Part shown: positions 3,489 to 20,920 of the stretch, piece by piece | Numbering within the stretch: the first letter of the stretch is position 1 | How the letters are laid out: every line of letters begins with the position of its first letter | From: an uncultured Thermoleophilia bacterium | GTDB taxonomy: Bacteria; Actinomycetota; Thermoleophilia; UBA2241 | Assembly (NCBI GenBank): GCA_963702475.1 | Contig: CAVPCT010000005.1 | Location: 608,001-672,000 of the forward strand | Reading direction: 5' to 3' | Length of the DNA: 64,000 bases | Notes under the pieces: generated by a model | Seen by the model: the letters and a program-made list of their open reading frames with translations, nothing else | Database searches by the model: none | Told to the model about the DNA's origin: nothing | Translations under genes and position numbers: made by a program

Positions 3489-4763
3489 TCACTGCCGGCC
3501 CGCCCCCTCTGCCGCCGCGGCCTGCCGCGCCTCCTCCATCGCCACGCGCCCGGCTGAGCGCTGCCGCACCGGGTCCAGGCGCAGGGTGACGATAGCCGCC
3601 GCGAACGCGAACCCGCAGCCGATGAAGAACGGCACCTGGTAGCCGACGTAGTTGAGGACCATGCCCGCGGCCACCGGCACGACGATGGCGGTGGCGTGCA
3701 GCAGGGTGACGCCCATGGCCAGGCTCGGAGCGATGTCCGCAGGCACGGCGATCTTGCGCAGGTACGTGGCCGCGCCGATGGCCGAGAACGGCGCGATGAA
3801 GCTGTAGATCACGTAGAAGACGCAGGCGAGCCACACGTTGCCCATGAGCGCGTACCCGGCGAGCGCGACGATGTAGGCCACGTTGATGGCCGACAGCGTG
3901 GAGCGCTCGCCGTGGCGATCGATCATGCGCCCGGCCCACGGCGAGAACAGCATCGCCACCACGGTCGAGATGATGACCACCAGCGACACGGCCGAGACCC
4001 CCATGCCGAAGCGGCTCACCAGCACCCACAGGCCGAACGAGAAGAAGAGCTGCTGGCGGGCGCCGTCGAGCACGTTGAGCACGTAGTAGTACCGGTAGTC
4101 GCGTCGCACCACGATCCGCTGGCGCGGCAGCTGGGCCGCGATGAGCTTGCCCTCGTGCAGGTGCGGAAAGCCGACGATGGCGACCGCACCGAGCAGCGCG
4201 ATGACGCCGCACGCCACGTACACCTCGTGGTAGAGGTCGGGCCACTGCAGGAAGAGGAGCAGCACGACGGCGGTGCCCACGAGCGCCCCCGCCTGCGCGA
4301 TGCCTGCCATGGTGCCCAGGATGCGGCCACTGTGCGCCTCCTCCGAGAGACTCATGCCCAGCGCGACCTGCGTCTGCAGGACGGTGTGGAACCCGAGGCT
4401 CCCCAGCACCACCCAGGGGAGGACGGTCGAGAAGCTCGTCGCCAGCGCGTACCCGGCCGTCCCGACGGCGAGCACGACGAGGGCCAGCGCCGTGAGACGC
4501 TGCTGCGACATGCGGTACAGCAGCGCCGTGACGAAGATGAGCAGGAGCCCGGGTATCTCGCGGATCGCCGTGATGTAGCCGAACTGCGGACCGCTGAAGT
4601 GCAGGACGTCGGCGAAGTAGTTGGTGGTGACGGCGCTGCTCGTGTACATCGAGAGGCCGAACGCCAGCGACATGGCAGCCAGCATGAGGTAGCCGCGACC
4701 AGGGGGCGTGCGCCAGGTCGCGGGCAGGCGGCGTCCGTGCTCGATCGCGCGCATTGGGTTCAC
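3489..4763 (-). CDS. MFS transporter
   Basis: 424 aa, about 12 TM segments, AGRMIDRHGER loop motif. Confidence 0.88.
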   Translation of the reverse strand: MNPMRAIEHGRRLPATWRTPPGRGYLMLAAMSLAFGLSMYTSSAVTTNYFADVLHFSGPQFGYITAIREIPGLLLIFVTALLYRMSQQRLTALALVVLAVGTAGYALATSFSTVLPWVVLGSLGFHTVLQTQVALGMSLSEEAHSGRILGTMAGIAQAGALVGTAVVLLLFLQWPDLYHEVYVACGVIALLGAVAIVGFPHLHEGKLIAAQLPRQRIVVRRDYRYYYVLNVLDGARQQLFFSFGLWVLVSRFGMGVSAVSLVVIISTVVAMLFSPWAGRMIDRHGERSTLSAINVAYIVALAGYALMGNVWLACVFYVIYSFIAPFSAIGAATYLRKIAVPADIAPSLAMGVTLLHATAIVVPVAAGMVLNYVGYQVPFFIGCGFAFAAAIVTLRLDPVRQRSAGRVAMEEARQAAAAEGAGRQ

Positions 4764-4783
4764 GTTCCGGGCTCCTTCGCAGA

Positions 4784-4827
4784 CGCGAAAGGGGCGGCGG
4801 CCCTGCCGGGCCGCCGCCCCTTTCGCG
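4784..4827. terminator. Perfect 20-bp-stem hairpin just after sdhB
   Basis: cgcgaaaggggcggcggccc-TGCC-gggccgccgcccctttcgcg immediately 3' of the sdhB stop. Confidence 0.75.
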
Positions 4828-4830
4828 GCC

Positions 4831-5557
4831 TCACTTCGTCTTGCCGAACAGCCTCCGGCGCACGGCCGCCATCTTGAGCCACTGGATGCCCTCCGTCGGG
4901 TTCAGCTCCTTCGGGCAGGCCTCCACGCAGTTGGTGATCGTGTGGCAGCGGTAGGCGCCACGCTCGTTGTCCCACATCGGCATGCGATCCTTGACGGCCT
5001 CGTCGCGCGAGTCCACCTCGAAGCGGTACGCCTTGAGCAACGCGGCCGGGCCCAGGTAGTTGTCCTCGGTCCACACCGACGGGCAGCTGCTGTAGCAGGC
5101 CCCGCACAGGATGCAGTCGATCGGCATGTTCATCTTGAGCCGGTCCTTGGGCGACTGCAGGATCTCGCGCTCGGGCTCCTTGCGAGTGGCGGATGAGCCA
5201 CGGCTTGACGTACTCGTACTTGGCGAAGAAGTCGGTCATGTCGCAGACCAGGTCCTTCACCAGCGGCAGGTGCGGCAGCGGCTCCACGGTGATCACGTCG
5301 GCGTGCACGTGCAGCACGTTGGTCTGGCAGGCCAGGCGGTAGCGCCCGTTGATGTACATGGCGCACGAGCCGCACACGGCGGCGCGGCAGCAGTAGCGGA
5401 ACGAGAGCGTGCCGTCGAGGTGCTCCTGGATGTGGAAGAGCGACTCCAGCACGGTGATGTGCGACTCGTACGGCACCACGAAGTCGTCGTACCGCGCGAC
5501 CTTGGGGTCGTCCTTGGCGGGGTCGAAGCGCTTGATATGCAGTTTGACCTCGGGCAT
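4831..5557 (-). CDS. sdhB: Succinate dehydrogenase/fumarate reductase Fe-S subunit (frameshift near 5185)
   Basis: SFRYCCRAAVCGSCAMYING...LAC in one frame; CILCGACYSSCP and CHTITNCVEACP in the next; ATG overlaps the sdhA stop. Confidence 0.92.
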
Positions 5558-7263
5558 CAGTAGACACGCTCCTGTGGCTCGAAGAACCCGAGCGTGACCG
5601 GCCGGTAGGTGAGCACCGGTCCTTCGGGGCGGTAGCTGGCCATGGTGTGCCTCAGCCAGTGCTCGTCGTCGCGCGTGGGGAAGTCGGTGCGCGCGTGCGC
5701 GCCGCGCGACTCGGTGCGCGCGATGGCGCCCTGGGCCACGCACAGCGTGAGGTCGAGCATGCCCTCCAGCTCCAGGGTGCGCATCATGTCCAGGTTGAAG
5801 ATGCCGCCGGCGTTGCGCAGGCCGAGACGGGTGCAACGCTCCTTGAGCTTGAGCAGGCGCTCCAGGCCCTCGCGCATGGTGCGCTCGTCGCGGAACACGC
5901 CGTAGTGCTCCTTCATCGTCGTGGTCATGATCTCGCGGATGTCGTACGGGTCCTCGCCGTCCTTGCCGCGGGAGGCGAGGCTCGCGATGCGCGTCTCGAC
6001 GGCGGCCACCGCCTCGGCCGCGGCGAGCGACGGGTCGGGGCCGGACTCGCCGCCGAGCAGGTCCGCGGCCACGGCCGCGCCGGCGCGGCGGCCGAACACG
6101 ATGGTCTCGAGCAGCGAGTTGCCGCCGAGCCGGTTGGCGCCGTGCACGCTCACGCAGGCGCACTCGCCGGCGGCGTACAGGCCCTTCATCGGCGTGCGTC
6201 CGTCGACGTCGCAGTCGATGCCGCCCATCGAGTAGTGCTGGCTGGGCACGATGGGCACCGGCTCCTCCACCGGGTCGACGCCCTCGAAGTGGATGGCCAG
6301 GTCGCGGATGCCGGGCAGGCGCTCCTTGATGCGCTCGGCGCCGAGGTGCCGCAGGTCCAGGTACACGTAGCCCTGGCCGTCGATGCCGCGGCCCTCGTTG
6401 ATCTCGGTCTGGATGGAGCGCGCCGTGATGTCGCGCGGGGCGAGCTCCATGGCCTTGGGTGCGTAGCGCGCCATGAAGCGCTCGCCGTCGTTGTTGATGA
6501 GGTAGGCGCCCTCGCCGCGGGCCCCCTCGCTCATGAGGATGTTGGTGGTGAGCAGGCCCGTGGGGTGGATCTGCACGAACTCCATGTCCTCCATGGGCAC
6601 GCCGGCGTAGTAGCAGATCGCCCCGCCCCAGCCGGTGCTGATGATGGCGTTGGTGCTGTTGCTGTAGAGGCGGCCGGCGCCGCCGGTGGCCATGACCACG
6701 GCGTCGGCCGTGAAGGCGTGGAAGCCGCCGTTGATCATGTCGTAGACGGTGACGCCGCGGCACACGCCGTCCTGCACGATGAGGCTGGTGACGAAGACCT
6801 CCACGTACATCTTCACCTGGCGCTCGTAGGCGCGCTCCACGAGGCAGTGCAGCAGGTAGTGGCCGGTCTTGTCGGCGCCGTAGCAGGTCCTTGGAAAGCC
6901 GGCGCCGCCGAACGGCCGCTGGGCGATGCGCCCGTCGTCGAAGCGGCTGAACGGGCAGCCCCAGTGGTCCATCTCGAAGATGACCCCCGGCGCGTCCTTG
7001 GTCATCTGCATCACGGCGTCCTGGTCGGCCAGGTAGTCCGAGCCCTTGATGGTGTCGAAGCCGTGCTTCTCGGGGGTGTCGTCGTGGCCCTCGGGGTGGT
7101 TGGCCAGCGCGGCGTTGATGCCGCCCTGCGCCGCGCCGGAGTGGCTGCGCCCGGGGTGGACCTGGCTGATGATGGCGACGTCCAGGCCGTCGGCCTTGGC
7201 CTCGACGGCGGCGCGGCACCCCGCGAGCCCGCCGCCGACGACGATGAGCTGGTGGTGTGGCAT
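5557..7263 (-). CDS. sdhA: Succinate dehydrogenase/fumarate reductase flavoprotein subunit
   Basis: GGGLAG, RSHSGAAQGG (FAD His), EFVQIHPT, SEGARGEG, HGANRLGGNSL, ESRGAH. Confidence 0.96.
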   Translation of the reverse strand: MPHHQLIVVGGGLAGCRAAVEAKADGLDVAIISQVHPGRSHSGAAQGGINAALANHPEGHDDTPEKHGFDTIKGSDYLADQDAVMQMTKDAPGVIFEMDHWGCPFSRFDDGRIAQRPFGGAGFPRTCYGADKTGHYLLHCLVERAYERQVKMYVEVFVTSLIVQDGVCRGVTVYDMINGGFHAFTADAVVMATGGAGRLYSNSTNAIISTGWGGAICYYAGVPMEDMEFVQIHPTGLLTTNILMSEGARGEGAYLINNDGERFMARYAPKAMELAPRDITARSIQTEINEGRGIDGQGYVYLDLRHLGAERIKERLPGIRDLAIHFEGVDPVEEPVPIVPSQHYSMGGIDCDVDGRTPMKGLYAAGECACVSVHGANRLGGNSLLETIVFGRRAGAAVAADLLGGESGPDPSLAAAEAVAAVETRIASLASRGKDGEDPYDIREIMTTTMKEHYGVFRDERTMREGLERLLKLKERCTRLGLRNAGGIFNLDMMRTLELEGMLDLTLCVAQGAIARTESRGAHARTDFPTRDDEHWLRHTMASYRPEGPVLTYRPVTLGFFEPQERVY

Positions 7264-7275
7264 TCCTTGCTCCCC

Positions 7276-7644
7276 TCAGCTCACCCAGACCCAGAGGGCC
7301 CAGATCCCGAAGATGACGGCGGCGATGCCGACGACCCAGAGCACGACGTCGAAGGCCTTGCGGCCGCCCGAGCTGCTGAGGCCCCAGTCGAGCACGACCA
7401 TGCGCAGGCCGTTCAGCCCGTGGTAGACGACGGCGAGCAGCAGCACGATGTCGTTGATCAGCACGCGCCGGCCGGCCAGCCGCTCGCCGATGTTGTCGAA
7501 GCTCAGCTCGCCGATGGCCACGTAGTGCGTGAGCACCAGGTGGATCAGGATGGTGACGATGACGAGCACCGCGGTGACGCGCTGGCCCAGCCAGGGCCAC
7601 ATGCCGCCGCGGGCCTTGTCCAGGGCTTCCGTTCTCATTGCCAT
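7276..7644 (-). CDS. sdhD: Succinate dehydrogenase hydrophobic anchor subunit
   Basis: WLGQRVTAV, 3 TM, YHGLNGLRMVVLDW heme-His motif; position in the operon. Confidence 0.88.
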   Translation of the reverse strand: MAMRTEALDKARGGMWPWLGQRVTAVLVIVTILIHLVLTHYVAIGELSFDNIGERLAGRRVLINDIVLLLAVVYHGLNGLRMVVLDWGLSSSGGRKAFDVVLWVVGIAAVIFGIWALWVWVS

Positions 7645-7654
7645 GTCGGCCCCC

Positions 7655-8043
7655 TCAGCCCAGGATGAACGACGAGGCCTTGGCGGCGAACAGCGCAAGC
7701 GTGAGCGCCGCCACGAGCATGCACACCCAGAAGATGGCCTTGTGCCGGTGCACGCCGACGCCGAGGTCCATGAGGATGATGCGCACGCCGTTCAGGGCGT
7801 GGTAGAGCACCGCCGCCACGAGCATGAGGTCGAGGAAGACCAGCAGGGGCTTGTCGAAGAACTCGAACAGGTTGTCGATGGCCTCCGGGCCGCCGATGCG
7901 GCCCTGCGAGATCACCCACACGTGGACGAACAGGTAGAAGACCAGCACCAGGCCGCTGATGCGGAAGAGCATCCAGGCCCACATGCCCTGCCCTTCCACA
8001 ACCCGGCCCCGACGTTGGCCTGCTCGCGCTCCTTGACGGCCAA
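7655..8043 (-). CDS. sdhC: Succinate dehydrogenase cytochrome b556 subunit (frameshift near 7990)
   Basis: GMWAWMLFRISGL...YLFVHV...LYHALNGVRIILMD; TTG start after GGAGGTG RBS inferred. Confidence 0.85.
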
Positions 8044-8333
8044 GACAGGCACCTCCCCGGCTTCTCTCTCGTGACGGCGCTCGCGCGCGCGGCACTGCAC
8101 TCTCGCGTGATGCGCTCACGCGCGGGCGCACGCACGCCGGCTGCGCTCTGCGCCTTGTGCACTCACGCCTTCTGCACTCACGCGCGACCGGCTCACGCTC
8201 ACGCTCACGCGTGACTGGCTCGCGTGTGACTGCGTGCTGACTAGTTGTGGGATTCGTCCCCCCGCGCGCGAGTCCTAGCGGACCGCGGGGGGCCGGCCGC
8301 CCGGCCCCTGCACGAGGCCGGCCGGTCCGAAGA

Positions 8334-8363
8334 ATGATATCGGCATACCAAAAGTGATGACAA
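8334..8363 (-). promoter_or_regulatory. Putative sigma-A promoter for the sdh operon
   Basis: Minus strand TTGTCA-N18-TATCAT in an AT-rich patch; spacer contains TTGGTATGCCGA, loosely like GntR/FadR boxes. Confidence 0.5.
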
Positions 8364-8536
8364 GGAGCCGGGATGGCCAAAGCCGGGCGCGGGAGGGCTC
8401 CACTTGCGCGGCCAGGTGCTGCTCGCAAGGCACTCGCCTTGATACTCCGCCATGACCCGCGGCGGGACATCCTGCTACTCGTGGCCTCAAAGAGGATACT
8501 GTTGCAGAAGGCCCCCACACACACAGGATCGCGAAC

Positions 8537-10249
8537 CTAGAGCAGGTACGAGTACTTGCGCAGTTCCGCGGACAACGCCTCGCTGGCGGCGGCCATTTCG
8601 GACTCGCCTACGGCAGCCTCGAGAGCTGCGACCAAGCCCGCTATCCGAGATGCCTGCGCGTCATCGAGAAACGGCATCACCTTCTGCCGCGCCTGCTGGA
8701 GAAGGAGCAGCACCTGCGGATCGCGAGTCGTGCTTGAAACCTCGGTACGCTGGACTTCTTGACTCTCGATGGTCTGATCAACGCGCTGGGCTATTTCCAC
8801 CAACTGCCGCTTGTCCTGGGTAACGCCGGTCGTGACTTCTTCTTGGAGTATCACCTGGCGCGTGACGTTGTCGATGAGCGTTACGTAGACGATGCCGTCC
8901 ATCTTGTACTCGTAGGTCAGGTCAAGCGACGCCTCGCCGCGAGGACGAGGAGTAATCGGAACGTTCCAGCTGCACAGCTCGATGATGTCGGGGTCGTCCA
9001 GCCCGGCAACCGGGTCGCCTTCGAGGATGTCGACCTTCACAACCTCCTGAAGATCGACCGCCGGTACGTACGTCTCGGTGCGCTTGGCGGGCAACTTGTG
9101 ATTGCGGGGGATGATCTCGCTGAATTCGAGGGTGCCCGGCACCCGGCCAATGACGGTCGTTCCTAGAGCATGCTCGGTGGACACAAGGAAGTCCGCGGAT
9201 TCAAGTTCCCCGCTCATGATGGCCGCCGCAATCGCAGCACCTTCGGCAATCGCCGTCATGGGATCGATGTTGGGAGCAGGGTCCATGTTGAGCAACTCAC
9301 AGATGAACTGGCGAACCGCTGGAATCTTGCACGTCCCACCGACGAGCAGGAGGGTATCGACGTCCGACGCCTGACGCTTGCCGTCGGCAAGGGTGCGTTC
9401 GATGGGGCCGCGCACTCTGTCAACGAGAGCCCGCGTCTCTTCGTCGAAGATCCGTCGCGTCACGTGCCGGTACTCTCCCCCAGGCATCGCCACGTTCGTT
9501 TCTTCAGCAGCGGAGAGCTTGATCTTAGCCTTCTCACACTCGATCTTCAGCGCACCCACATCGACGGGCGACCACGACTCAACGCCCGAAGATGCCGCGC
9601 GGAGCTTGTTGAACAGGATCCGGTCGAAGTCCAGCCCGCCGCATTCGATGACGCCGCTCGACGACTGCTCATGGAAGACCTGGTCCATCGACTCGAGAAG
9701 AGTGACATCCAGGGTCCCCCCGCCCCAGTCAACCACGAGTACGGTCTTGTCGCCCGGGGTCTCGTAGCCATGCGCCATGGCGGCTGCCGTCGGTTCGTTG
9801 ATGAGCGTCAGCACCTGGATCCCACCCATGCCTGCGCAGATCTTCGTCCGGGCACGCGCGAGGCCACGACTGTTCGCGGGGACGGTGATGACCGCCTGCG
9901 CGACCTCAGATCCGCCCCACATCGTCGGCGCTGTTCGGAGGTGGCCGAAGATGAGCGCCGCCACCTCTTCCACGAGGTAGGCCTGGCCGCCCACCTCGAC
10001 GACCTCTTCACCCTTGAACAGCCGTTTGATCGCCTCGATCTTGTTGTCGTGCCGCATCTTGGCCGCGAAGCCGAAAAGGGGCTCATTGTCCCGACCCACC
10101 GCGAACACCGTAGGCATGATGTTCTGATAGCCGAAAGTCTCCCACTCTCCTGAGGGCGGCTGATCGATCTGCAGGACGCTGACGTCACCGGCGGCGAACT
10201 GGGCCACCACCGAGTTGGTCGTGCCGAAATCGATTCCAAAGGAACTCAT
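8537..10249 (-). CDS. Hsp70-family protein, divergent (not canonical DnaK)
   Basis: GIDFGTTNS, INEPTAAA, VVDWGGGTLDVT, LLVGGTCKIP; SBD-beta-like segment IIPRNHKLPAKRTETY...VKVDILEG; 570 aa. Confidence 0.93.
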   Translation of the reverse strand: MSSFGIDFGTTNSVVAQFAAGDVSVLQIDQPPSGEWETFGYQNIMPTVFAVGRDNEPLFGFAAKMRHDNKIEAIKRLFKGEEVVEVGGQAYLVEEVAALIFGHLRTAPTMWGGSEVAQAVITVPANSRGLARARTKICAGMGGIQVLTLINEPTAAAMAHGYETPGDKTVLVVDWGGGTLDVTLLESMDQVFHEQSSSGVIECGGLDFDRILFNKLRAASSGVESWSPVDVGALKIECEKAKIKLSAAEETNVAMPGGEYRHVTRRIFDEETRALVDRVRGPIERTLADGKRQASDVDTLLLVGGTCKIPAVRQFICELLNMDPAPNIDPMTAIAEGAAIAAAIMSGELESADFLVSTEHALGTTVIGRVPGTLEFSEIIPRNHKLPAKRTETYVPAVDLQEVVKVDILEGDPVAGLDDPDIIELCSWNVPITPRPRGEASLDLTYEYKMDGIVYVTLIDNVTRQVILQEEVTTGVTQDKRQLVEIAQRVDQTIESQEVQRTEVSSTTRDPQVLLLLQQARQKVMPFLDDAQASRIAGLVAALEAAVGESEMAAASEALSAELRKYSYLL

Positions 10250-10828
10250 GTCACCTCCTCCTCGACCGGAGCCTCGGCGTCGCTGGACTCGTCGACTCCC
10301 TCTTGCCCGGGTGTCGCAGACGGCGCTGCTCGCTGAGGCGACTGCCGAGCCTCGTCCGGGTGTGCGTCGCGCGTCTCGGCCACGGCTTCAGACTGCCTTA
10401 CTGCGTTCGAGTCCACGGCTCTCGCCTGCCCCTGCTTGATGACTCGGCTGCTGATGGCGTCGATATACGCCGGGACCAAGATCTCCAGGCGGTCTCCGGT
10501 GCCGTCGACGACTTCGAAGGCCTCGGGCTGCGAAGCATCCTGGAACCTCACCATGCCGGCCTGCTCAATCCACTCCGCCACAAGCCGGCGCAGAGTCTCG
10601 ACGTCCTCAGTCCGCGAGAGCGCCACATCGAGTTGCGCTAGTTGCACAAGGTGCATGGTGAGATCCTGGACGGCCGCGACGACCGTCTTCCGCAGGCCTT
10701 CGAGGCCTCTACGGAACGCGACGTGCCCGGATCCCGACGACCAGTGCGACCTCAACCCTATCGAGCTTCCGGTCGACCGTGTCGAGCAGCCGGATGATCT
10801 CGTCAAGGCGCTCTCTCTCTTTCCTCAT
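10246..10828 (-). CDS. GrpE-like protein (frameshift near 10715-10745)
   Basis: N-terminal coiled coil MRKERERLDEIIRLLDTVDRKLDRVE, helical middle, C-terminal AFEVVDG...EILVPAYIDAISSRVIKQGQARAV resembling the GrpE beta domain; ATGA overlaps on both sides. Confidence 0.55.
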
Positions 10829-11244
10829 TGCGGATCAGCCTTTCCTAGAGGGAACAGCACGGACACATCGATGCGTTCTGCGCTCAAGTGAACGAGAGCA
10901 TCGACCGCTTCGTCGAGCGCTCTCGCGCGGATCTCCTCCAGTTCCTCACTTGTCGGCCTTGCCGTACTCCTTGCCAACGGGACGGCCGGAATCTCAAGCC
11001 CCCCCATCTCGGCAAACAGCGCCCGGTCAGCGGGCACGCGGTAGTGATCGACGGCCGACCCCGGATCGTCAATCGCCTGTTCGATCGCGTGAAGAGCCCA
11101 CGTGACATCTTCGATGCCGTAGAGAGCGTCGGGGTCGCGCTTCACGCGCCTGAGCACTGCCCCGGCTGCCTTCCGCGCGGCGTCGCGCGAGGCCCCGTAG
11201 TCGATGCCAAGAATGAAATAGGGGTTGCGGCGCTCGTCATCCAT
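10825..11244 (-). CDS. J-domain-like protein lacking the HPD motif
   Basis: RNPYFILGIDYGASRDAARKAAGAVLRRVKRDPD matches J-domain helices I-II (PYxxLGv...As...kkA); RDPD at the HPD position. Confidence 0.6.
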   Translation of the reverse strand: MDDERRNPYFILGIDYGASRDAARKAAGAVLRRVKRDPDALYGIEDVTWALHAIEQAIDDPGSAVDHYRVPADRALFAEMGGLEIPAVPLARSTARPTSEELEEIRARALDEAVDALVHLSAERIDVSVLFPLGKADPQ

Positions 11245-11250
11245 CGGCTG

Positions 11251-14093
11251 TCACCTCGAAAGGGCCATGAGCAGGTAGTACAGACGCTCGCTTTCCGATC
11301 GCAGGTCACGCAACGCATCGGCAAGCTCTTCGTCGCCAAGGTGCGGTGTGATTTTGTCGAGAATCTTGCAGGTGTCGGTGCAGAACCGCATGACCGGGTT
11401 CGTCGCCACGAGCACGGCGGCGCGATTCACGCTATACCCGTGGCCGACACTGGCGATCTGCTGCCCGATGCGGTTGTAGAAGCCGAACGCCTCGCGAAGC
11501 TCTGAGTCGCGATACCTGCCTACCACCGCCGCCATCTCGGCGAATCCGATGCTCAGCATGGCCTGCGCGTACTCGCGTTCGTCCGCCGGAAGGGAGGCCA
11601 GTTCGCTCTTGGCGTAGATCAGCATGTCGAGGAACTTGTCTTTGGGTTCCCCTCCGTCCTCAGTGACGCTCTCCGCAACGCCCGCCACCACGAGTCCGAC
11701 CAACGGAATCCTCTCCCCCGCGTCCATCGGCATGTCGGCCTCAATGACGTCGATGCCGAGCATGCGGCCCACGTCTCGGCCGGGGTCTTTGTGAGCCCCG
11801 TCATGAGGGCGCCCACCAATCCATCCCGCTCTTCGATCAACCACCTCGCGTCGGAGTTCCCCCGCAAGGCGGCTGCAAGGGCAACAATGAACGTATCGAT
11901 CCCCTTGGCCCTCGCCCCGTAGACCCTGGCCTCCACCGAACCAGGTGCGGAGACGATGAGGCTGTCGTTCCGACGAAGCCATTCAGCGTCGACGGAGGCC
12001 ATCAATCGCAGGGGGCTGCGGAACGGATCGCAGTCCCACCGGACCGGCCACGCCCACCAGTGCGTGCACCAAATCCTCGGGCATGTCCGCCTCGGGGTCC
12101 GTCGTCGAACTCGCTGGCGCTGAACCCACAGTCACGGCCCGAAGCGACGGCGACCACGCAAAGCTCAGGGGAGGGAGACTCAGCACCAGTCGGGCGAGAT
12201 GGTGAGCCCCGGCAGCGGGGTCCTCACCTCCAGAGACGACACCAATGTTGGCTTGTAGAGCCGACGAGTGCTCGTTGTCGATGGCTTGCTCAAGGGCTTG
12301 AATCGCAGCCTCGTCGCGTCCAACTTGCCACTGTACCGCCGCCATCAAGTTCAGCGCTTCATCCTGGTGGCTTCGGCGCGGGACATCGAAAGACACTGCT
12401 TGGCAAGGGCCAGTGTCTTCTCCCACTCCCACGCGTAGAGGTGGTCTTGCCTCGTAAGCTTGGGGAACTCCAGGAACTCGGGCCCTGCTTCTATCAGAGC
12501 CGGCCTTCGCGTGACAGCGGTCGCACAGCGCGAAGGACGGGAAACGCGTACAGACAAGAGCGCCGGTGTCGCCGGCTCCAAGCTGTCGGCTTGGACGCAG
12601 GCGGCGAGCGCGTTGAGCTTGTCGTGCTGTTCTGGGTTCATGCCGGGGACCGTTACTGGTCGGACTCGGGTCTCAGAGGCCGATGTTGTGCGCGAAAGCC
12701 GGCCGCGTACCAGGACGACTGCAGTTCAAGGTCGGCCGTGACTTCGGGGACGCCCTGCGGCCACGCATGGCGTGTCGCGTGGCGCTTGAAACCATGGTGT
12801 TGAGCACTCTTAGCCGTGCTCGAAAGCCTAGCTTGAAACGTGCGCGTAGCGCCACATGAATGGTGCCGACGACGCCGGGAGAGCCTGGTCAATCAGGTCA
12901 TCAAGCACAGACATCGGCAGAGTAGCAAGGAAGTCGGGAGCCGCCTTGGTGAGGTCCGAGCAACGACCGCCGAATGTCGCGAGAAGCTCGAACGCGGGTC
13001 TGGGACCTCAAGATCATCCGGGAAACGGAGGGGACCCTGTGATGCCGATCTCGCCATCTCCGACGCTGCCAACCTGGCACTGGTAGCCTGCGGAGTGAGG
13101 CTAGACCGCGGTCAATGAAACGAGCAGCGCCACGAGCGGCCAGGTGCGTGACGAGTCGCGCGGCCAAGTCAGTGGCCCAAGGAGAACGTGCTGGACTAGG
13201 GCCACGGCCGGGTTGGCTTCGCAGCACCCTCCAGCGCCTCTGCCACTCGCTGCGCAGCGCTCGTTTCGACAGAGTGGTCCAGCAACGCAGCACCACCACA
13301 AGCTTGACCGGATACCCGGAGGGGAGCATCGTCATGACGATGAGCGCTGCCTCCCGTGGCACTGGAGCGTGCAGCAATGACGCGTACCAATGCGCGCGGA
13401 GTCACTCAGCGGGATCTGCGCGAGGAGATCCTCACGGGAGCACCGAAGCACGTCCGCGACCGTGAGACGGAACTGGCCGTGGCCTGGTTGATCTCAGAGC
13501 GCTACGGAGGCGCTCGCGGTCAGTCTGCACCTTCGATCACACGCCGTGAACGAGCGACCATGCCCGCGTGCCGCTGCGGCCTCGTGCGAGGGCCTCGACG
13601 ATCGTGAGGACGTTCCACCTCGACGCCTCGACTACGTGGAGCGTGAGCGTCGTCGTTGTGGCAACAACGATGGCGGCTTCTTGGTGAACCCTCTTCGGAC
13701 TTGATAGACACTCCCTAGCTGCCCTCGAGGCTGGGACCTGGGGAGAGAGAGCGTGGCCCTGCACTCGGTGCACACTGCGCCGACGGACGGCCAAGCACCG
13801 CAAGACCAGCAGAAGGGAGGCAACGGCAGGTCAATGGCGGAAGTCGCATCCGGCACACCGACCGCGCTGGGCAACTTGGCCGTTGAGGGCGCAGAAGACT
13901 CTCTCGTCGGGACTTGCGCAACCACCCACTCGCGCAAACCCTCATAGGCCCACTTCAGGTGCCCCTGTGCGTCATAGTCGATGACGTGCGTCGGCGATAT
14001 AGGTCCGTGACCCTCAAGGAAGTACTGCCGGTTCTCGTAGCGAATGGTCTTGCCGACCCACGCGGTACTGGGTCCGAACGTCGCGAGAAGCAT
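11251..14093 (-). CDS. Large (about 945 aa) Zn-ribbon plus TPR-containing protein, rebuilt across many frameshifts
   Basis: ATG 14093 behind GGAGGGG; CWSC...CTEC near 13.8 kb; TPR-like QDEALNLMAAVQWQVGRDEAAIQALEQAI near 12280-12367; helical C-terminus ends 6 nt before the J-like gene; could be more than one gene. Confidence 0.5.
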
Positions 14094-14339: not shown

Positions 14340-15909
14340 GGAGCAGCGCTCGCCGTGCACGTCGAACTTCTGGCCGTCGTCCTGGAGCAGGCCGGAGAGC
14401 TGCTCCCACTTCTTGTCGCAGCCGGAGAAGCCCACCTTGTCGGCGAGCTCTCGTGATGGGTCCGCGTGACATCTCGTACGCAGTTCCTGGATGGTCTGCG
14501 CCGCCGAGGCCTGGTCGACGACCTGCTCCTCGAGCTCCTCGAGCTCCTCGTCGGGCAGCTCGTCGAGGTCTTCGAGGTCCTCGATGTCGAGCTCGGGGGC
14601 GACGGCGCCGGTGGCGAGCAGCACGTCGGCCTGCTCGGCCGTCACCTGGGCGCCGCGGCGCAGCAGCTTCTCCTCCTCGAGCTTGGCCTCGAGGCGCTTG
14701 CGGCGGCGCTTCAGCGACTGGTAGATCGCCTCGGGCGAGGAGGCGAGGCGGCGCTGCAGGGTGGTGAGCGCGAAGCCGACGGCGATGCGCCGGCGCCCCT
14801 GGCCCTGCTCGTTGGCGAGCCGGTCGGCGCGGTTCATCTCCTCGCGCACGTAGGTCGGTGAACTCGTTGTAGAGGTACGCCTCGTCGGCGGAAAGCGCGT
14901 ACTTGACGGCGTAGGCGCGGCGCTCGGGGAACAGCGGCCGCCCGTCAATGTGGCGCAGCTGCTCCTTGGAGAGGCGGCGCATCATGTCGCGGGCGCCGGC
15001 CTCCTTGCTGTGCCCCTCTTGCCGCGCACCTTGCCGGCGAAGCGGTCGTAGTCGAGCAGCGCCATGAAGAGGTCGAAGTCCTCGGGCTTGCCGCTGTGCG
15101 GCGTCGCTGTCATCAGCAGCAAGTGGCGCGTCACCTCGCCGAGGCGCATGCCGAGCTTGTAGCGCTTGGTCTCCTTGACCTCGTTGCCGAAGTAGTGCGC
15201 CGACATCTTGTGGGCCTCGTCGCAGATCACGAGGTCCCAGTCGCTCTGGCTGAGCTTGGCGAGCAGCTCCTCGTTACGCGAGAGGTGGTCGAGGCGGGCG
15301 ATGAGCAGGTCCTTCTCGAGGAAGGGGTTGCCGGCGTACGAGGCGTCGATCATCTGCCGCGTGACGATCTCGAAGGGGAGGTGGAACTTCTCGCGCAGCT
15401 CGTCCTGCCACTGGTCGACCAGCATGCCCGGGCAGACGATGAGGCACGCGCTTGGCGTCGCCGCGCACCATGAGCTCCTTGATGAGCAGGCCGGCCATGA
15501 TGGTCTTGCCGGCGCCGGGGTCGTCGGCGAGCAGGAAGTGCAGTGGCTGGCGGGAGAGCATCTCCTCGTAGACCGCCGAGATCTGGTGCGGCAGCGGCAT
15601 CACGTTGGAGGTGCTGACCGCGAGCAGCGGGTCAAAGAGGTAGGCGAGCTGGATGCGGCGCGCCTCGCTGACGAGGCGGAAGAGCGCGCCGTCGGCGGTG
15701 AGGGACCAGGCCTTGCCGGGCAGCCTCGACCTCAAACCGCGACTCGGCGTCCCGGTAGAGGACCTCCTCGCCGACGCGGCCCGCGTCATCGCGGTAGGTG
15801 AGCGTAAGCGCGGCGGTGCCGTGCCACTGCCGGCGACGACGGTCACCGCCTGGCCCGCGACCACCCCGGTCACGCGCGCGCCAGGCGTGAGGTCCTCGAG
15901 ACGTGCCAT
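14340..15909 (-). pseudogene. SNF2-family helicase (defence-island type, usually DUF3883-bearing), truncated before the C-terminal helicase domain
   Basis: [21 protein letters not shown] (Walker A), [37 protein letters not shown]; similarity stops at DVHGER; several frameshifts. Confidence 0.8.
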
Positions 15910-16129: not shown

Positions 16130-17605
16130 ATGGACGTGCTGCTCGACACGAACATCCTGATCCCGGCGGAGCCAACCTCGCCGAGTGACATCGGAGCCGA
16201 CGACACCCTGTGGTGGCGGAGCTCTTGCGCCTCATAGGAGACCGGGGGCAAGGTGCTGATCCACCCGGATGCCTTTCGGGAGAGTCGAGCACGATACCGA
16301 CCCTGGGCGGCGCGAGCTACGACGCGCATTTCTCGCGAAGTATCCACGGCTCACGTCACCTCCTGAGCTTGACGGCACAGCTCGCCGACCGCTTCGGCTC
16401 TCCAAATCCCGGATCGCACGACGCCGTCGACCTACGCCTCCTGGAGGCGCTGAGGGCGCGGTCTCGCCGACATATTGGTCACGGATGACACAGCATTGCG
16501 CCGGCGAGCCAGAGCCATCGACCTCGGGGACTCCGTGCTCACTTCATCAGAGGCGCTGGAACTCATGCGTCGTCTGTACGAACCGCTGGTCATGGCGCCG
16601 CCTGCGATTAGGCATCTCACGTGCGATCAACTCGATGTCGGCCGATCCCATCCTCGACTCACTCAGCCGCGACTACGACGGGTTCGACGACTGGCTCGCC
16701 AGAGCCGCGCTCATGCGCCGTGATGCGTGGGTGGTCGTCGATGAGAGGCGGCATCTACGCGGGCCTTGGCAATCATCAATGAGGAGATCCAGGGCGAGCA
16801 TGGGCTGCTCGGCAAGCTCCTCAAGATCTGTACGTTCAAAGTGGCTGACGTCCACCGCGGAAGCCGGTACGGAGAGCTCCTCCTGAAGCCGATCCTTGAT
16901 CACGCCTTCGCGCACGGCTACGACACGGTGTTTGTCGAAGCGAAGCCAGACAACGAAGAGTTGTTTTCCTTCCTCGACACCTTCGGCTTCCATGACACGC
17001 GGCCGATTCAAGAACGGCACTGACCCCGTGTTCGCAAAGACGCTCCGCGTCCCCGATGACGGGGCATCTGGTCTGAACGACCTCGAGTTTCACATCGCAT
17101 TCGGTCCGCCGACGCTCAGATGGGTCGGCGTGCCCGCGTTCATCGTCCCGATCCAACCTCGGTTTCACAGCCGCCTCTTCCCCGAGGCGGAACGCCAGCT
17201 CACGCTGTCGCCTGCTGCGGAACCTCACGCAAACGGGATCCGCAAGGCGTACCTGTCGAAAGCTGCGTCGCGCCAACTGACGCCCGGGGTCCGTGTCTGT
17301 ACTTCTACCGGTCTCAGAGCCAGGAGGTGACAGTGGTGGGTGTCGTCGAGGATGTCCATGTTCTGTCCGATGCACCGTCTATCGTCCGTGCAGCAGGAAA
17401 GAGGACGCTGTTCGCATATGAGGACATCGAGAAGCGCTCGCAGCGAAAGGTACCGACGTCCTCGTGATCGGCTTCCGCCAGGCCCGAGTCCTCGACGAAC
17501 CGATCTCATACGGCGAACTCCAGAGAGGTGGCGTTCTCAAGGGTCCGCCGCAGACCGTCACGTCCATCGAATCGGAGGCAGCGGCATGGCTGGCGCAAGA
17601 GCGCA
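16130..17605 (+). CDS. PIN domain-GNAT acetyltransferase-(EVE/PUA-like) fusion, frameshifted
   Basis: VLLDTNILI...D..LL...ILVTDD (PIN); DPILDSLSRDYDGFDDWL, KICTFKVADVHRGSRYGELLLK (GNAT); IVPIQPRFHSRLFPE, IRKAYLS...LYFYRS...VGVVEDV, GPPQTVTSI. Confidence 0.8.
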
Positions 17606-19812: not shown

Positions 19813-20326
19813 ATGCACAAGTCCATCGTCATCGTGGCGGCGCTCGCCGCCGCCCTGCTGCTGGCCGTCGCCTGCGGAAGCGGGAGCGACGGCACGCCGG
19901 CGCCGCAGGCACGGCCGGCGTCGGCGACACCGTGAGCGTCGCCGGAGGCTCCTCCAGCTCGAGATCACGCTCGAGGAGACCAGACGGCTGCCGGCGAGAC
20001 GGTCGGCGGCACGGAGGTCCGGCCGGCCCTGTTCGGGGTCAAGCTCGCCGTCAGGAACCTGACGGGGTCGTTCTACGACGACGCGATCTCACTCTGCGCC
20101 GTGCTCACCGACACGAGCGGCCGCACCCACAACGTCGCGTGGGAGCTCGTCGACGAGAGCGACGAGGAGTTCCGCGACGTGCTCGAGGGCGTCCGCATCC
20201 CGGCGGGCGGCGAGCGGACCGGCTGGGTCTACTTCGCGCTCGCGCCCGAGGCGCGAACCGTCAACGCTGCGCTTCACCGCCGAGGCCGGCTTCGGTCCCG
20301 AGACCGGGGTGTGGTCGCTGGAGTGA
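19813..20326 (+). CDS. DUF4352-like lipoprotein, frameshifted
   Basis: Lipobox LAVAC; FGVKLAVRNL...IPAGGERTGWVYF beta-sandwich pattern. Confidence 0.55.
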
Positions 20327-20340
20327 GACGGGCGCGCCGA

Positions 20341-20676
20341 TCACGGCGCGACGAGCCGTGCCGAACCGCGCGAGCACGGCCGCCGTCAGCTCCGCGGGCA
20401 GCGCGCACGCCAACTCCGCACCGCGCGCCCGCCAGTCCAGGCTCTTCACCTGGTCGGAGAGGACGACGCCGTCGACCGGCAGCGCCTCCGGGACTGCGAC
20501 CTCGAATGGGTATCCCTTCACCCTGCTCGTCAGTGGACAGAGCAGCGCGAGCCCGACCTGCCGTTGTACGCCGCCGGCGAGACGACGAGCCAGGGCCGGC
20601 GGCCTGACTGCTCGTGTCCCGCCACCTCCGGCGTGGCCAGCCAGACGACGTCGCCGCGTTCGGGCACGTACCCCAC
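20341..20676 (-). CDS. mazF: MazF/PemK endoribonuclease toxin (frameshifts)
   Basis: YVPERGDVVWL...GHEQSGRRP.LVVSPAAYN...CPLTSRVKGYPFEV...LSDQVKSLDWRAR. Confidence 0.85.
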
Positions 20677-20677
20677 C

Positions 20678-20920
20678 TCACCAGACCTCGCTGCCGGCCG
20701 CCTGGCCGGCGTCGGTCTCTGCGTGCAGGTTGCCAGGCGTCACGCCTGCCAGCAGGTCCGCCAGCGTCGGTGCCGGGGCGAGGCAGGCTCGAGCCACGAG
20801 CTTGCCGTCGCAGACCCGCAGGTCGACCGCCGAATCCACCACCAGTCCCATCTCCTCCGCAAAGACCTTCGGGATCCTGACCGCGAGGCTGTTGCCCCAG
20901 CGCTGGACCTTGGTTCTCAT
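20678..20920 (-). CDS. mazE: MazE/AbrB-type antitoxin
   Basis: MRTKVQRWGNSLAVRIP...TLADLLAGVTPGNLHAETD...GSEVW. Confidence 0.9.
   Translation of the reverse strand: MRTKVQRWGNSLAVRIPKVFAEEMGLVVDSAVDLRVCDGKLVARACLAPAPTLADLLAGVTPGNLHAETDAGQAAGSEVW

Follow-up and report, generated by a model that had tools for sequence, protein, structure and literature searches.

A probable self-contained HscC-type Hsp70 machine with GrpE-fold and HPD-less J-fold partners on a low-GC island of an uncultured Thermoleophilia bacterium

INTRODUCTION

What kind of chaperone system is encoded by four adjoining genes of an uncultured Thermoleophilia bacterium, in which an Hsp70 is accompanied by two small helper-like proteins and a large protein with a Zn ribbon? 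The cassette lies in a stretch of 64,000 nucleotides (assembly GCA_963702475.1, contig CAVPCT010000005.1, positions 608,001 to 672,000), which was analyzed at its full length and is referred to as the window. A sequence-only reading of the window had proposed a horizontally acquired, self-contained Hsp70 machine whose client or sensor is the large TPR protein and which possibly serves in an anti-phage or other conflict system. The computational follow-up presented here points, with a probability of roughly 0.6, to a horizontally acquired, self-contained machine of the HscC type, consisting of an ATPase-competent Hsp70, a coupled exchange factor with a GrpE fold, a J-fold protein that lacks the HPD motif, and a Zn-ribbon/TPR-like scaffold. 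The cassette is most safely read as a private machine for Hsp70-driven remodelling, whose targeting factor would be formed by the scaffold together with the J-like subunit, and a role in defence is only hinted at by genes for RNase A-like toxins or trypsin-like proteins beside the cassette in a few loci.

According to the accessible text of reviews, bacterial Hsp70s are divided into DnaK, HscA, and HscC, of which HscA and HscC need no exchange factor; in one review, other derivatives of DnaK are called "dark matter," and a review from 2026, likewise in its accessible text, regards the derivatives of bacterial DnaK as largely unexplored. In the cassette, an HscC-type Hsp70 would be accompanied by a GrpE-fold factor of its own and by an HPD-less J-fold partner. 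A literature search retrieved no description of a cassette composed of scaffold, HPD-less J protein, GrpE-like protein, and Hsp70. In the accessible parts of J-protein surveys, inclusion depends on an InterPro DnaJ match plus HPD, and such surveys would therefore miss the J-like family described below.

RESULTS AND DISCUSSION

Gene layout of the cassette

The cassette consists of four co-oriented genes on the minus strand, which fill positions 14093 to 8537. Loci from metagenomes that were compared with the window are designated by L and a number, and individual homologous proteins by P and a number. The features are as follows, in the order of their coordinates:

8537..10249, minus strand: Hsp70 of 570 amino acids (aa), intact, with a full nucleotide-binding domain, substrate-binding beta domain, and lid
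10246..10828, minus strand: exchange factor with a predicted GrpE fold, with about two frameshifts near 10745-10715
10825..11244, minus strand: co-chaperone-like protein with a predicted J fold, 139 aa, intact, with a long C-terminal helix at residues 99-124
11251..14093, minus strand: scaffold with a small N-terminal domain, a Zn ribbon, and a helical/TPR-like body, with at least seven frameshifts
12085..12440, minus strand: most conserved helical (TPR-like) core of the scaffold, 66-92% identical to residues 576-694 of P0122 and alignable to the scaffolds of L013 and L017
13737..13808, minus strand: Zn ribbon of the scaffold (CxxC...CxxC), matching Pfam DZR_2 below the cut-off (E = 0.0036), with cysteine pairs that align in L016, L017, L018, and L020

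Reading of the junctions confirmed the arrangement that had been proposed from the sequence. The stop of the J-like gene shares an ATGA at 10825-10828 with the ATG of the exchange-factor gene, the stop of the latter shares a second ATGA at 10246-10249, preceded by GGAGG, with the ATG of the Hsp70, and a gap of 6 nucleotides separates the stop of the large gene (11251-11253) from the start of the J-like gene.

A divergent HscC-type Hsp70

The Hsp70 matches Pfam HSP70 (PF00012) with an E value of 4e-74 over residues 74-564 and Geobacillus DnaK (2v7y) with 1.8e-64 in phmmer. It reaches neither the NCBIfam cut-offs for DnaK (256 versus 822 bits and 255 versus 648 bits; TIGR02350 and NF001413) nor that for HscA (220 versus 620 bits), and it is about 31-33% identical to the DnaK-type gene of the same genome. 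The best 120 relatives listed are 46-92% identical, and 119 of them have a length of 560-575 aa; they bear only generic names ("Hsp70 family protein"), and some originate from records of Demequina, Isoptericola, Lentzea, and Acidobacteria. Trebonia and Allocatelliglobosispora are further named sources of records for the family.

Residues were counted in 31 family members aligned with DnaK, HscA, and HscC of Escherichia coli and are given in DnaK numbering. The catalytic residues D8, T11, K70, E171, D194, and T199 are kept in all 31 proteins, and the K55-E267 salt bridge is likewise retained throughout. Arginine R167, which is present in all three E. coli proteins, is substituted in every family member (by A in 19, T in 9, V in 2, and G in 1). 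The interdomain linker of the family reads D-F-F-V, and its conserved C-terminal tail ends in RKYSYLL.

Five defining features of HscC-type proteins are found in the Hsp70, namely, its length of 570 aa, which falls within the range of 550-580 aa, and four indels that the family has in common with HscC: the deletion of DnaK positions 76-101, the loss of the D211 loop, the loss of the GrpE-signature loop, and an insertion of 5-6 aa in L1,2. In the accessible text of Mayer (2021), HscC-type Hsp70s are defined by the same length range and these indels, with an L1,2 insertion of 4-8 aa. An unrooted tree of 25 rows places the family in a clade of its own (support of 100/99), apart from DnaK, with the pair L022/L024 as its sister (100/100 for the joint clade); E. 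coli HscC lies outside the joint clade on a long, unresolved branch. From these sequence features, the protein is read as a divergent HscC-type Hsp70. Small open reading frames (ORFs) upstream of the Hsp70 in the sister locus L022 were compared with the exchange factor and the J-like protein by hhalign, and probabilities of 5% and 0.1%, respectively, gave no support for kinship.

Two further observations concern the Hsp70s. An insertion of about 10 aa that is specific to the family is located in lobe I of the nucleotide-binding domain (residues 29-42, about 10165-10124), has the pattern PP-x-x-W-x-x-x-G-[FY] with invariant W36 and G40, and is absent from DnaK, HscA, and HscC. The L016 contig also carries, at a distance of 5.5 kb on the downstream side of its cassette, a gene for a second, different Hsp70 of 572 aa (L016:16200-17915; Pfam E value of 1.2e-96), which has a very long branch in the tree.

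Two small proteins with predicted co-chaperone folds

Neither the window fragment of the exchange factor nor five homologues matched any Pfam (including GrpE, PF01025), NCBIfam, or PADLOC model, and no GrpE was among the matches of the exchange-factor profile to PDB sequences. The family comprises 221 members at E ≤ 1e-3, none of which has a name, and the C-terminal part of the window protein is 39-46% identical to the intact homologues in L016, L017, and L020. An AF2 model of the L016 homologue, based on an alignment of 45 sequences, reached a pLDDT of 86 and consists of a long N-terminal helix, two more helices, and a small C-terminal beta domain. In a Foldseek search of the PDB, ranks 1 to 10 are all occupied by GrpE (best E value of 1.7e-3, probability of 0.99), and VIA matched 3a6m_B with Z 6.8 (141 aligned residues, root mean square deviation [rmsd] of 32.0) and 1dkg_B with Z 5.2 (100 residues, rmsd of 5.0). 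The fold match covers the whole chain, and the matched family is consistent. The model thus supports a GrpE fold for the exchange factor, as had been guessed from the sequence.

The J-like protein has no match in Pfam (PF00226), NCBIfam, or PADLOC either, and its profile yielded weak, sub-threshold J-domain matches among PDB sequences (6 of 13 rows, E values of 0.13-0.64). Its family has 234 representatives. The AF2 model of the window protein, built from 64 sequences, has a pLDDT of 87.4 and helices at residues 8-12, 20-36, 44-59, 61-68, and 99-124. The J domain of CbpA is the best VIA row (Z 8.1, rmsd of 2.9 over 69 residues), the J domain of DnaJ bound to DnaK (5nro_B) was matched with Z 6.6, and all fold-match rows shown, in VIA as well as in Foldseek, are J or J-like domains. 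A J-domain fold is supported by this model, and the earlier assignment as a J-like protein holds for the fold, with the HPD motif being absent.

The HPD motif is held to be essential, and R167 of the Hsp70 is reportedly the partner of its aspartate. HPD is found in none of the 64 J-like relatives, in which the loop is variable. R69 and P71 are present in all 64, within a Y-R-V-P-A-D-P segment that follows helix IV, and helix II is basic, with a median net charge of +5. The loss of HPD from the J-like protein, together with the loss of R167 from the Hsp70, is taken as evidence of a rewired, private pair. Such a double loss would represent a natural experiment in the rewiring and insulation of J-domain signalling, and it should be of interest to chaperone specialists, as should the pairing of an HscC-type Hsp70 with a GrpE of its own.

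In other proteins, the J-like domain occurs in fusions with different modules, i.e., with TPR plus a Zn ribbon, DUF4333 plus LRV, a solute-binding domain, DUF2510, and Septum_form/Mycobact_memb (P0250, P0285, P0333, P0355, and P0381). Given these fusions to modules of the envelope type or of other kinds, the family of the J-like domain is wider than the cassette. Fusions to such varied modules are the way in which real J domains are deployed.

The gene content could be that of a second DnaK-DnaJ-GrpE operon of the ordinary heat-shock type, serving general proteostasis, as the same three functional classes are encoded and paralogues of dnaK occur, according to the accessible text of PMC11019930, in many Actinobacteria, Chloroflexi, and Acidobacteria. 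This explanation is nevertheless highly improbable: the low identity to the DnaK-type gene of the same genome and the scores far below the NCBIfam DnaK cut-offs speak against it, as do the separate family clade in the 25-row tree, the lack of HPD, of a G/F region, and of a Zn-finger client domain, the failure of the helpers to match Pfam DnaJ or Pfam GrpE, and the obligate linkage to the scaffold.

Conservation of the partnership and the role of the scaffold

In tblastn searches with the window proteins, the J-like protein was detected in eight metagenome loci and the exchange factor in five, and every match adjoins an Hsp70 of the family. A profile scan covered the window plus 12 family loci, with most misses being located at contig ends. 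The scaffold profile matched in 10 of the 13 loci (all but L012, L019, and L023, which have little or no flank) and the J-like profile also in 10 (all but L011, L019, and L023). The exchange-factor profile matched in 8, leaving without a match L010, L014, and L018, where upstream DNA is present, and L019 and L023, where there is none. The same profiles matched none of 76 other Hsp70 loci.

The order scaffold, J-like protein, exchange factor, and Hsp70 is found in the window, L016, L017, and L020. In L010 and L012, the J-like gene follows the Hsp70, and in L013 and L015, which belong to lineages with 47% GC, as well as in L014, a single fused protein contains both the J-like domain and the scaffold core. 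The partnership with a Zn-ribbon/TPR protein thus recurs elsewhere, in a gene order that varies and with fusions in some loci.

The scaffolds P0122 and those of L016, L017, L018, and L020 have in common an N-terminal CxxC...CxxC ribbon, a beta-rich stretch, and a long helical body. All TPR matches are below the Pfam cut-offs (E values of 0.007-0.04), and the double-Zn-ribbon match is weak as well. Atlas neighbours of the scaffold are TPR and DZR-TPR clusters (0.84-0.90), and residues 1-260 retrieved only clusters without names, at 0.84. No enzymatic domain was found in the scaffold, and a comparison of its N terminus with the neighbouring kinase, PP2C, and vWA proteins that are described below yielded no match. 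The proposal that the TPR protein is the client gained no support; because the J-like domain is fused to the scaffold in some loci, a role as a targeting subunit is favoured.

Proposed mechanism and its weak points

From the folds, conserved residues, co-occurrence, and fusions described above, we infer the binding steps and the target of the following cycle. The scaffold and the J-like protein would act together as a split "class C J-protein," with the scaffold selecting the target or place. The J-like domain would dock on the Hsp70 via its basic helix II and could thereby couple the binding of a target to ATP hydrolysis; the contact involved would stand in for the canonical HPD-R167 pair, a replacement that would insulate the machine from the housekeeping DnaJ and DnaK. 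The cycle would be reset by the GrpE-fold exchange factor, and the RKYSYLL tail of the Hsp70 may dock in the TPR part of the scaffold, by analogy with the EEVD-TPR docking of eukaryotes.

Several observations weigh against this picture of a self-contained HscC-type machine. The scores for the GrpE fold are middling (TM of about 0.33, Z of 5-7), and no domain of the scaffold exceeds a Pfam cut-off. The profiles used for the locus scan were partly built from the same loci, which makes only the tblastn-type detections independent. L010, L014, and L018 have no detectable exchange factor despite the presence of upstream sequence, and the machine may therefore be able to do without this component. 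J-like proteins that lack HPD, for example Tim16/Pam16, act on Hsp70 as regulators rather than as stimulators, and Tim16 is among the fold matches of the J-like protein (2guz_B, Z 6.8). Furthermore, the copy in the window carries about nine frameshifts, and consequently nothing in the cassette need be functional in this organism.

Decay or assembly error

The large gene, which had been described as coding for a protein of about 945 aa, is not a single frame. Its intact homologue P0122 has 975 aa and is located on a 13-kb metagenome contig beside a 92%-identical Hsp70. In tblastn, P0122 aligns to the large gene from residue 1 at 14093, which agrees with the start proposed earlier, through the stop at 11251. 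Ungapped tblastn with P0122 revealed at least five frame switches, and together with an excursion near 13670-13480, this amounts to at least seven frameshifts. One of them is the loss of a G from a GGG run near 12365; at another, near 11790, a single base is missing at a site that is not a homopolymer. In the exchange-factor gene, which starts with the ATG at 10828, about two frame changes near 10745-10715 are needed to recover the invariant V-R-[ED]-P segment. Both the Hsp70 gene and the J-like gene read as open, unbroken frames. Outside the island, no break was seen in 14 coding-like stop-to-stop frames of at least 500 aa, which add up to 33 kb of the window, and this shows that the frameshifts are local and not assembly-wide. 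The cassette copy in this genome is either decaying or located in a badly assembled stretch, and it is a poor specimen of the cassette.

The second possibility, i.e., that the frameshifts arose as consensus errors when long metagenomic reads were assembled over an island that varies among strains, and that the living cell has an intact, active cassette, deserves serious consideration, although on the whole we doubt it. The source is a metagenomic bin of nine contigs (4.3 Mb, completeness of 93.8%, contamination of 6.5%), at least one shift is the loss of a G from a GGG run, and the breaks hit every larger gene of the island except the Hsp70. These points are opposed by the unbroken state of the long core frames elsewhere in the window (33 kb) and by the presence of at least one shift outside a homopolymer.

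The island and its horizontal acquisition

The GC content drops to 0.61-0.65 at about 8.5-19.5 kb of the window and is about 0.70-0.75 elsewhere. At third codon positions (GC3), the four cassette genes have values of 0.72-0.78, compared with 0.92-0.98 for most core genes of the window, which corroborates the impression that their third positions are richer in A and T than those of the flanking genes. None of 40 relatives has the cassette or anything closer to its Hsp70 than an ordinary DnaK-type gene (≤37% identity), and a match to the Hsp70 at 1e-100 is likewise lacking in all 400 other genomes that were sampled from the phylum. Because of this absence and the GC3 shift, the proposed horizontal acquisition is supported. 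A scan of a collection of genome contigs retrieved only one distant Devosiaceae Hsp70. Collections of plasmids, phages, and viral contigs contained no match to the J-like protein or its profile, and the plasmid collection had no match to the Hsp70 at 1e-60.

Neither a tRNA nor a convincing flanking direct repeat was found at the island borders. Genes for the flavoprotein, Fe-S, and cytochrome b subunits of a succinate dehydrogenase/fumarate reductase (4760-8524, minus strand) abut the Hsp70 stop, and the island ends within a few bases of the Hsp70 gene. The neighbours within the island are as follows:

14985..15599, minus strand: fragment of an SNF2-type helicase (Pfam SNF2-rel_dom, E value of 1.2e-10), outside the cassette
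16745-17020, plus strand: GNAT fragment
20264..20908, minus strand: genes for MazF and the antitoxin MazE, located at the island's far end (matches to Pfam PemK_toxin in two frames that overlap and to MazE_antitoxin with an E value of 1.4e-7)

The MazF/PemK toxin gene (20264-20739, minus strand) is split over two overlapping frames and adjoins a MazE-like segment at about 20795-20908 (minus strand); the SNF2 gene is likewise in pieces. Of the neighbours named in the sequence-only reading, the helicase and GNAT (both as fragments), the split MazF, and MazE were recovered, whereas no PIN domain was found at E ≤ 0.01 among the window ORFs scanned.

A possible role in conflict

The cassette might also be a conflict system, anti-phage or abortive, in which the Zn-ribbon/TPR protein is the sensor and the Hsp70 an NTP-driven switch comparable to STAND NTPases, which arms variable effectors or sequesters phage proteins. 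Its location on a low-GC island shared with the SNF2 fragment, the GNAT fragment, and MazEF, as well as its patchy distribution, would be in line with this idea. In L016, a gene for an RNase A-like CdiA-CT domain (Pfam E value of 4.4e-6) directly follows the Hsp70, and a homologous gene was recognized by eye in L019; a gene for a trypsin-like peptidase follows in L010. Genes for vWA, PP2C, and kinase proteins are found beside the cassette in L016 and L017 and a PD-(D/E)XK gene beside that of L015. Moreover, Hsp70-like NTPases are proposed as switches in such systems by Aravind's group, according to the accessible text. On the other side, none of the core proteins is matched by a PADLOC model or contains an effector domain, and no effector gene adjoins the cassette in the window. 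The neighbours in L018 and L013 are ordinary or uninformative, those of L018 being metabolic, searches of plasmids, phages, and viral contigs did not detect the J-like gene, and about 12 loci were covered. A conflict system is therefore rather unlikely; if the reading were true, Hsp70 would join the NTPase switches of prokaryotic immunity.

A bolder version of this reading sees in the cassette the minimal core of widespread, undescribed Hsp70-driven immune or conflict switches, composed of a sensor, an HPD-less adaptor, and an insulated HscC-type Hsp70 with GrpE, which would arm effectors encoded in trans (RNase A-like toxins or trypsin-like peptidases) or trap an invader protein. We consider it an unlikely reading.

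The searches with PADLOC-DB 2.0.0 yielded no match for the window proteins and intact homologues, apart from one weak, spurious "Cyclase" match (2.8e-4) of the L016 scaffold, and the cassette is thus not a system named in that database, as had been anticipated. With respect to the neighbouring genes, the two of about 190 aa that come immediately after the family Hsp70 (L016:10767-11327 and L019:1604-2203) may encode effectors in certain versions of the cassette. A TerY-P-like triad of vWA, PP2C phosphatase, and Ser/Thr kinase is encoded at L016:356-3274 (minus strand), L016:4716-5321, and L017:6302-9158. An ORF of 202 aa with a DxSxS motif and no Pfam match is located directly upstream of the L016 scaffold gene.

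Comparison with known systems

Kaur et al. (2020; PMC7159879) reported, in the accessible text, that about 14% of the neighbourhoods of DO-GTPase/GAP1-N2 systems contain Hsp70, GrpE, and a fusion of an FNIII protein with DnaJ or TPR; these systems occur mainly in actinobacteria and firmicutes and are predicted to be conflict systems. Membership of the cassette in these systems would be suggested by the same three chaperone functions plus TPR in that text and by the vWA, PP2C, and kinase genes, a further theme there, which adjoin the cassette in L016 and L017. However, the genome, which is 93.8% complete and was searched as a whole, contains no match to DO-GTPase1 (PF19975) or GAP1-M (PF20014), and DO-GTPase2 (PF19993) has only a sub-cut-off match of 23 positions on another contig, C6. 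The family-locus ORFs scanned contain neither a GTPase nor a GAP1 Pfam match, and no FNIII, and six neighbour ORFs of L016, L017, and L019 that were checked have no P-loop. Since the defining GTPase and GAP1 families are absent from the genome and the scanned family loci, we give membership next to no credence; the cassette and these systems may share the ancestry of parts. HSP70, GrpE, and DnaJ entries are missing from two supplementary files of Kaur et al. (2020), among which the neighbourhood tables are not included. As to whether the cassette matches an already described system, PADLOC yielded no match, and the combination of Hsp70, GrpE, and DnaJ/TPR had been noted before, inside a GTPase system that is absent here. 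In sum, the cassette is neither DnaK/DnaJ/GrpE nor a PADLOC system nor the Hsp70 theme of the DO-GTPase/GAP1 systems.

The canonical DnaK-DnaJ-GrpE system resembles the cassette in that an Hsp70, a J-fold protein, and a GrpE-fold protein are encoded together and in the conservation of the catalytic residues and the basic face of helix II. It differs by the presence of HPD and R167, by the linker VLLL, which is replaced by D-F-F-V in the cassette, by helpers that are recognized by the Pfam DnaJ and GrpE models, and by the lack of an obligate scaffold partner.

Tim16/Pam16 is similar to the J-like protein in having a J fold without HPD, as reflected by the match to 2guz_B. Pam16 works by pairing with an HPD-bearing J protein, whereas no such HPD partner is encoded in the cassette. 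The Hsp70-like domains of CoCoNuT systems (PMC11090510) were considered and judged to be unrelated. Homologues of McrB/McrC are their fusion partners or are encoded together with them, and their ATPase motifs are degenerate.

The nearest studied system is the hscC locus of E. coli, which comprises hscC, djlC, djlB, and two genes for Sel1-repeat proteins (YbeQ and YbeT), so that helical-repeat proteins are encoded nearby as in the cassette. According to the accessible text on HscC, it is a short, specialized Hsp70 of 550-580 aa with the same losses of DnaK positions 76-101, the D211 loop, and the GrpE loop and with an L1,2 insertion. HscC also has private J partners with a noncanonical triad, which reads HPE in DjlB and DjlC. 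In contrast, HscC is only 28% identical to the cassette Hsp70, lies outside the family clade on its long branch, and keeps R167, which the cassette family has lost. It is held, in the accessible text, to need no exchange factor, whereas the cassette carries a translationally coupled gene for a predicted GrpE-fold protein, known from gene context, and its Hsp70 family keeps the K55-E267 salt bridge in 31 of 31 members. The J-like protein of the cassette lacks any H-P-[DE] and has no profile match to DjlC.

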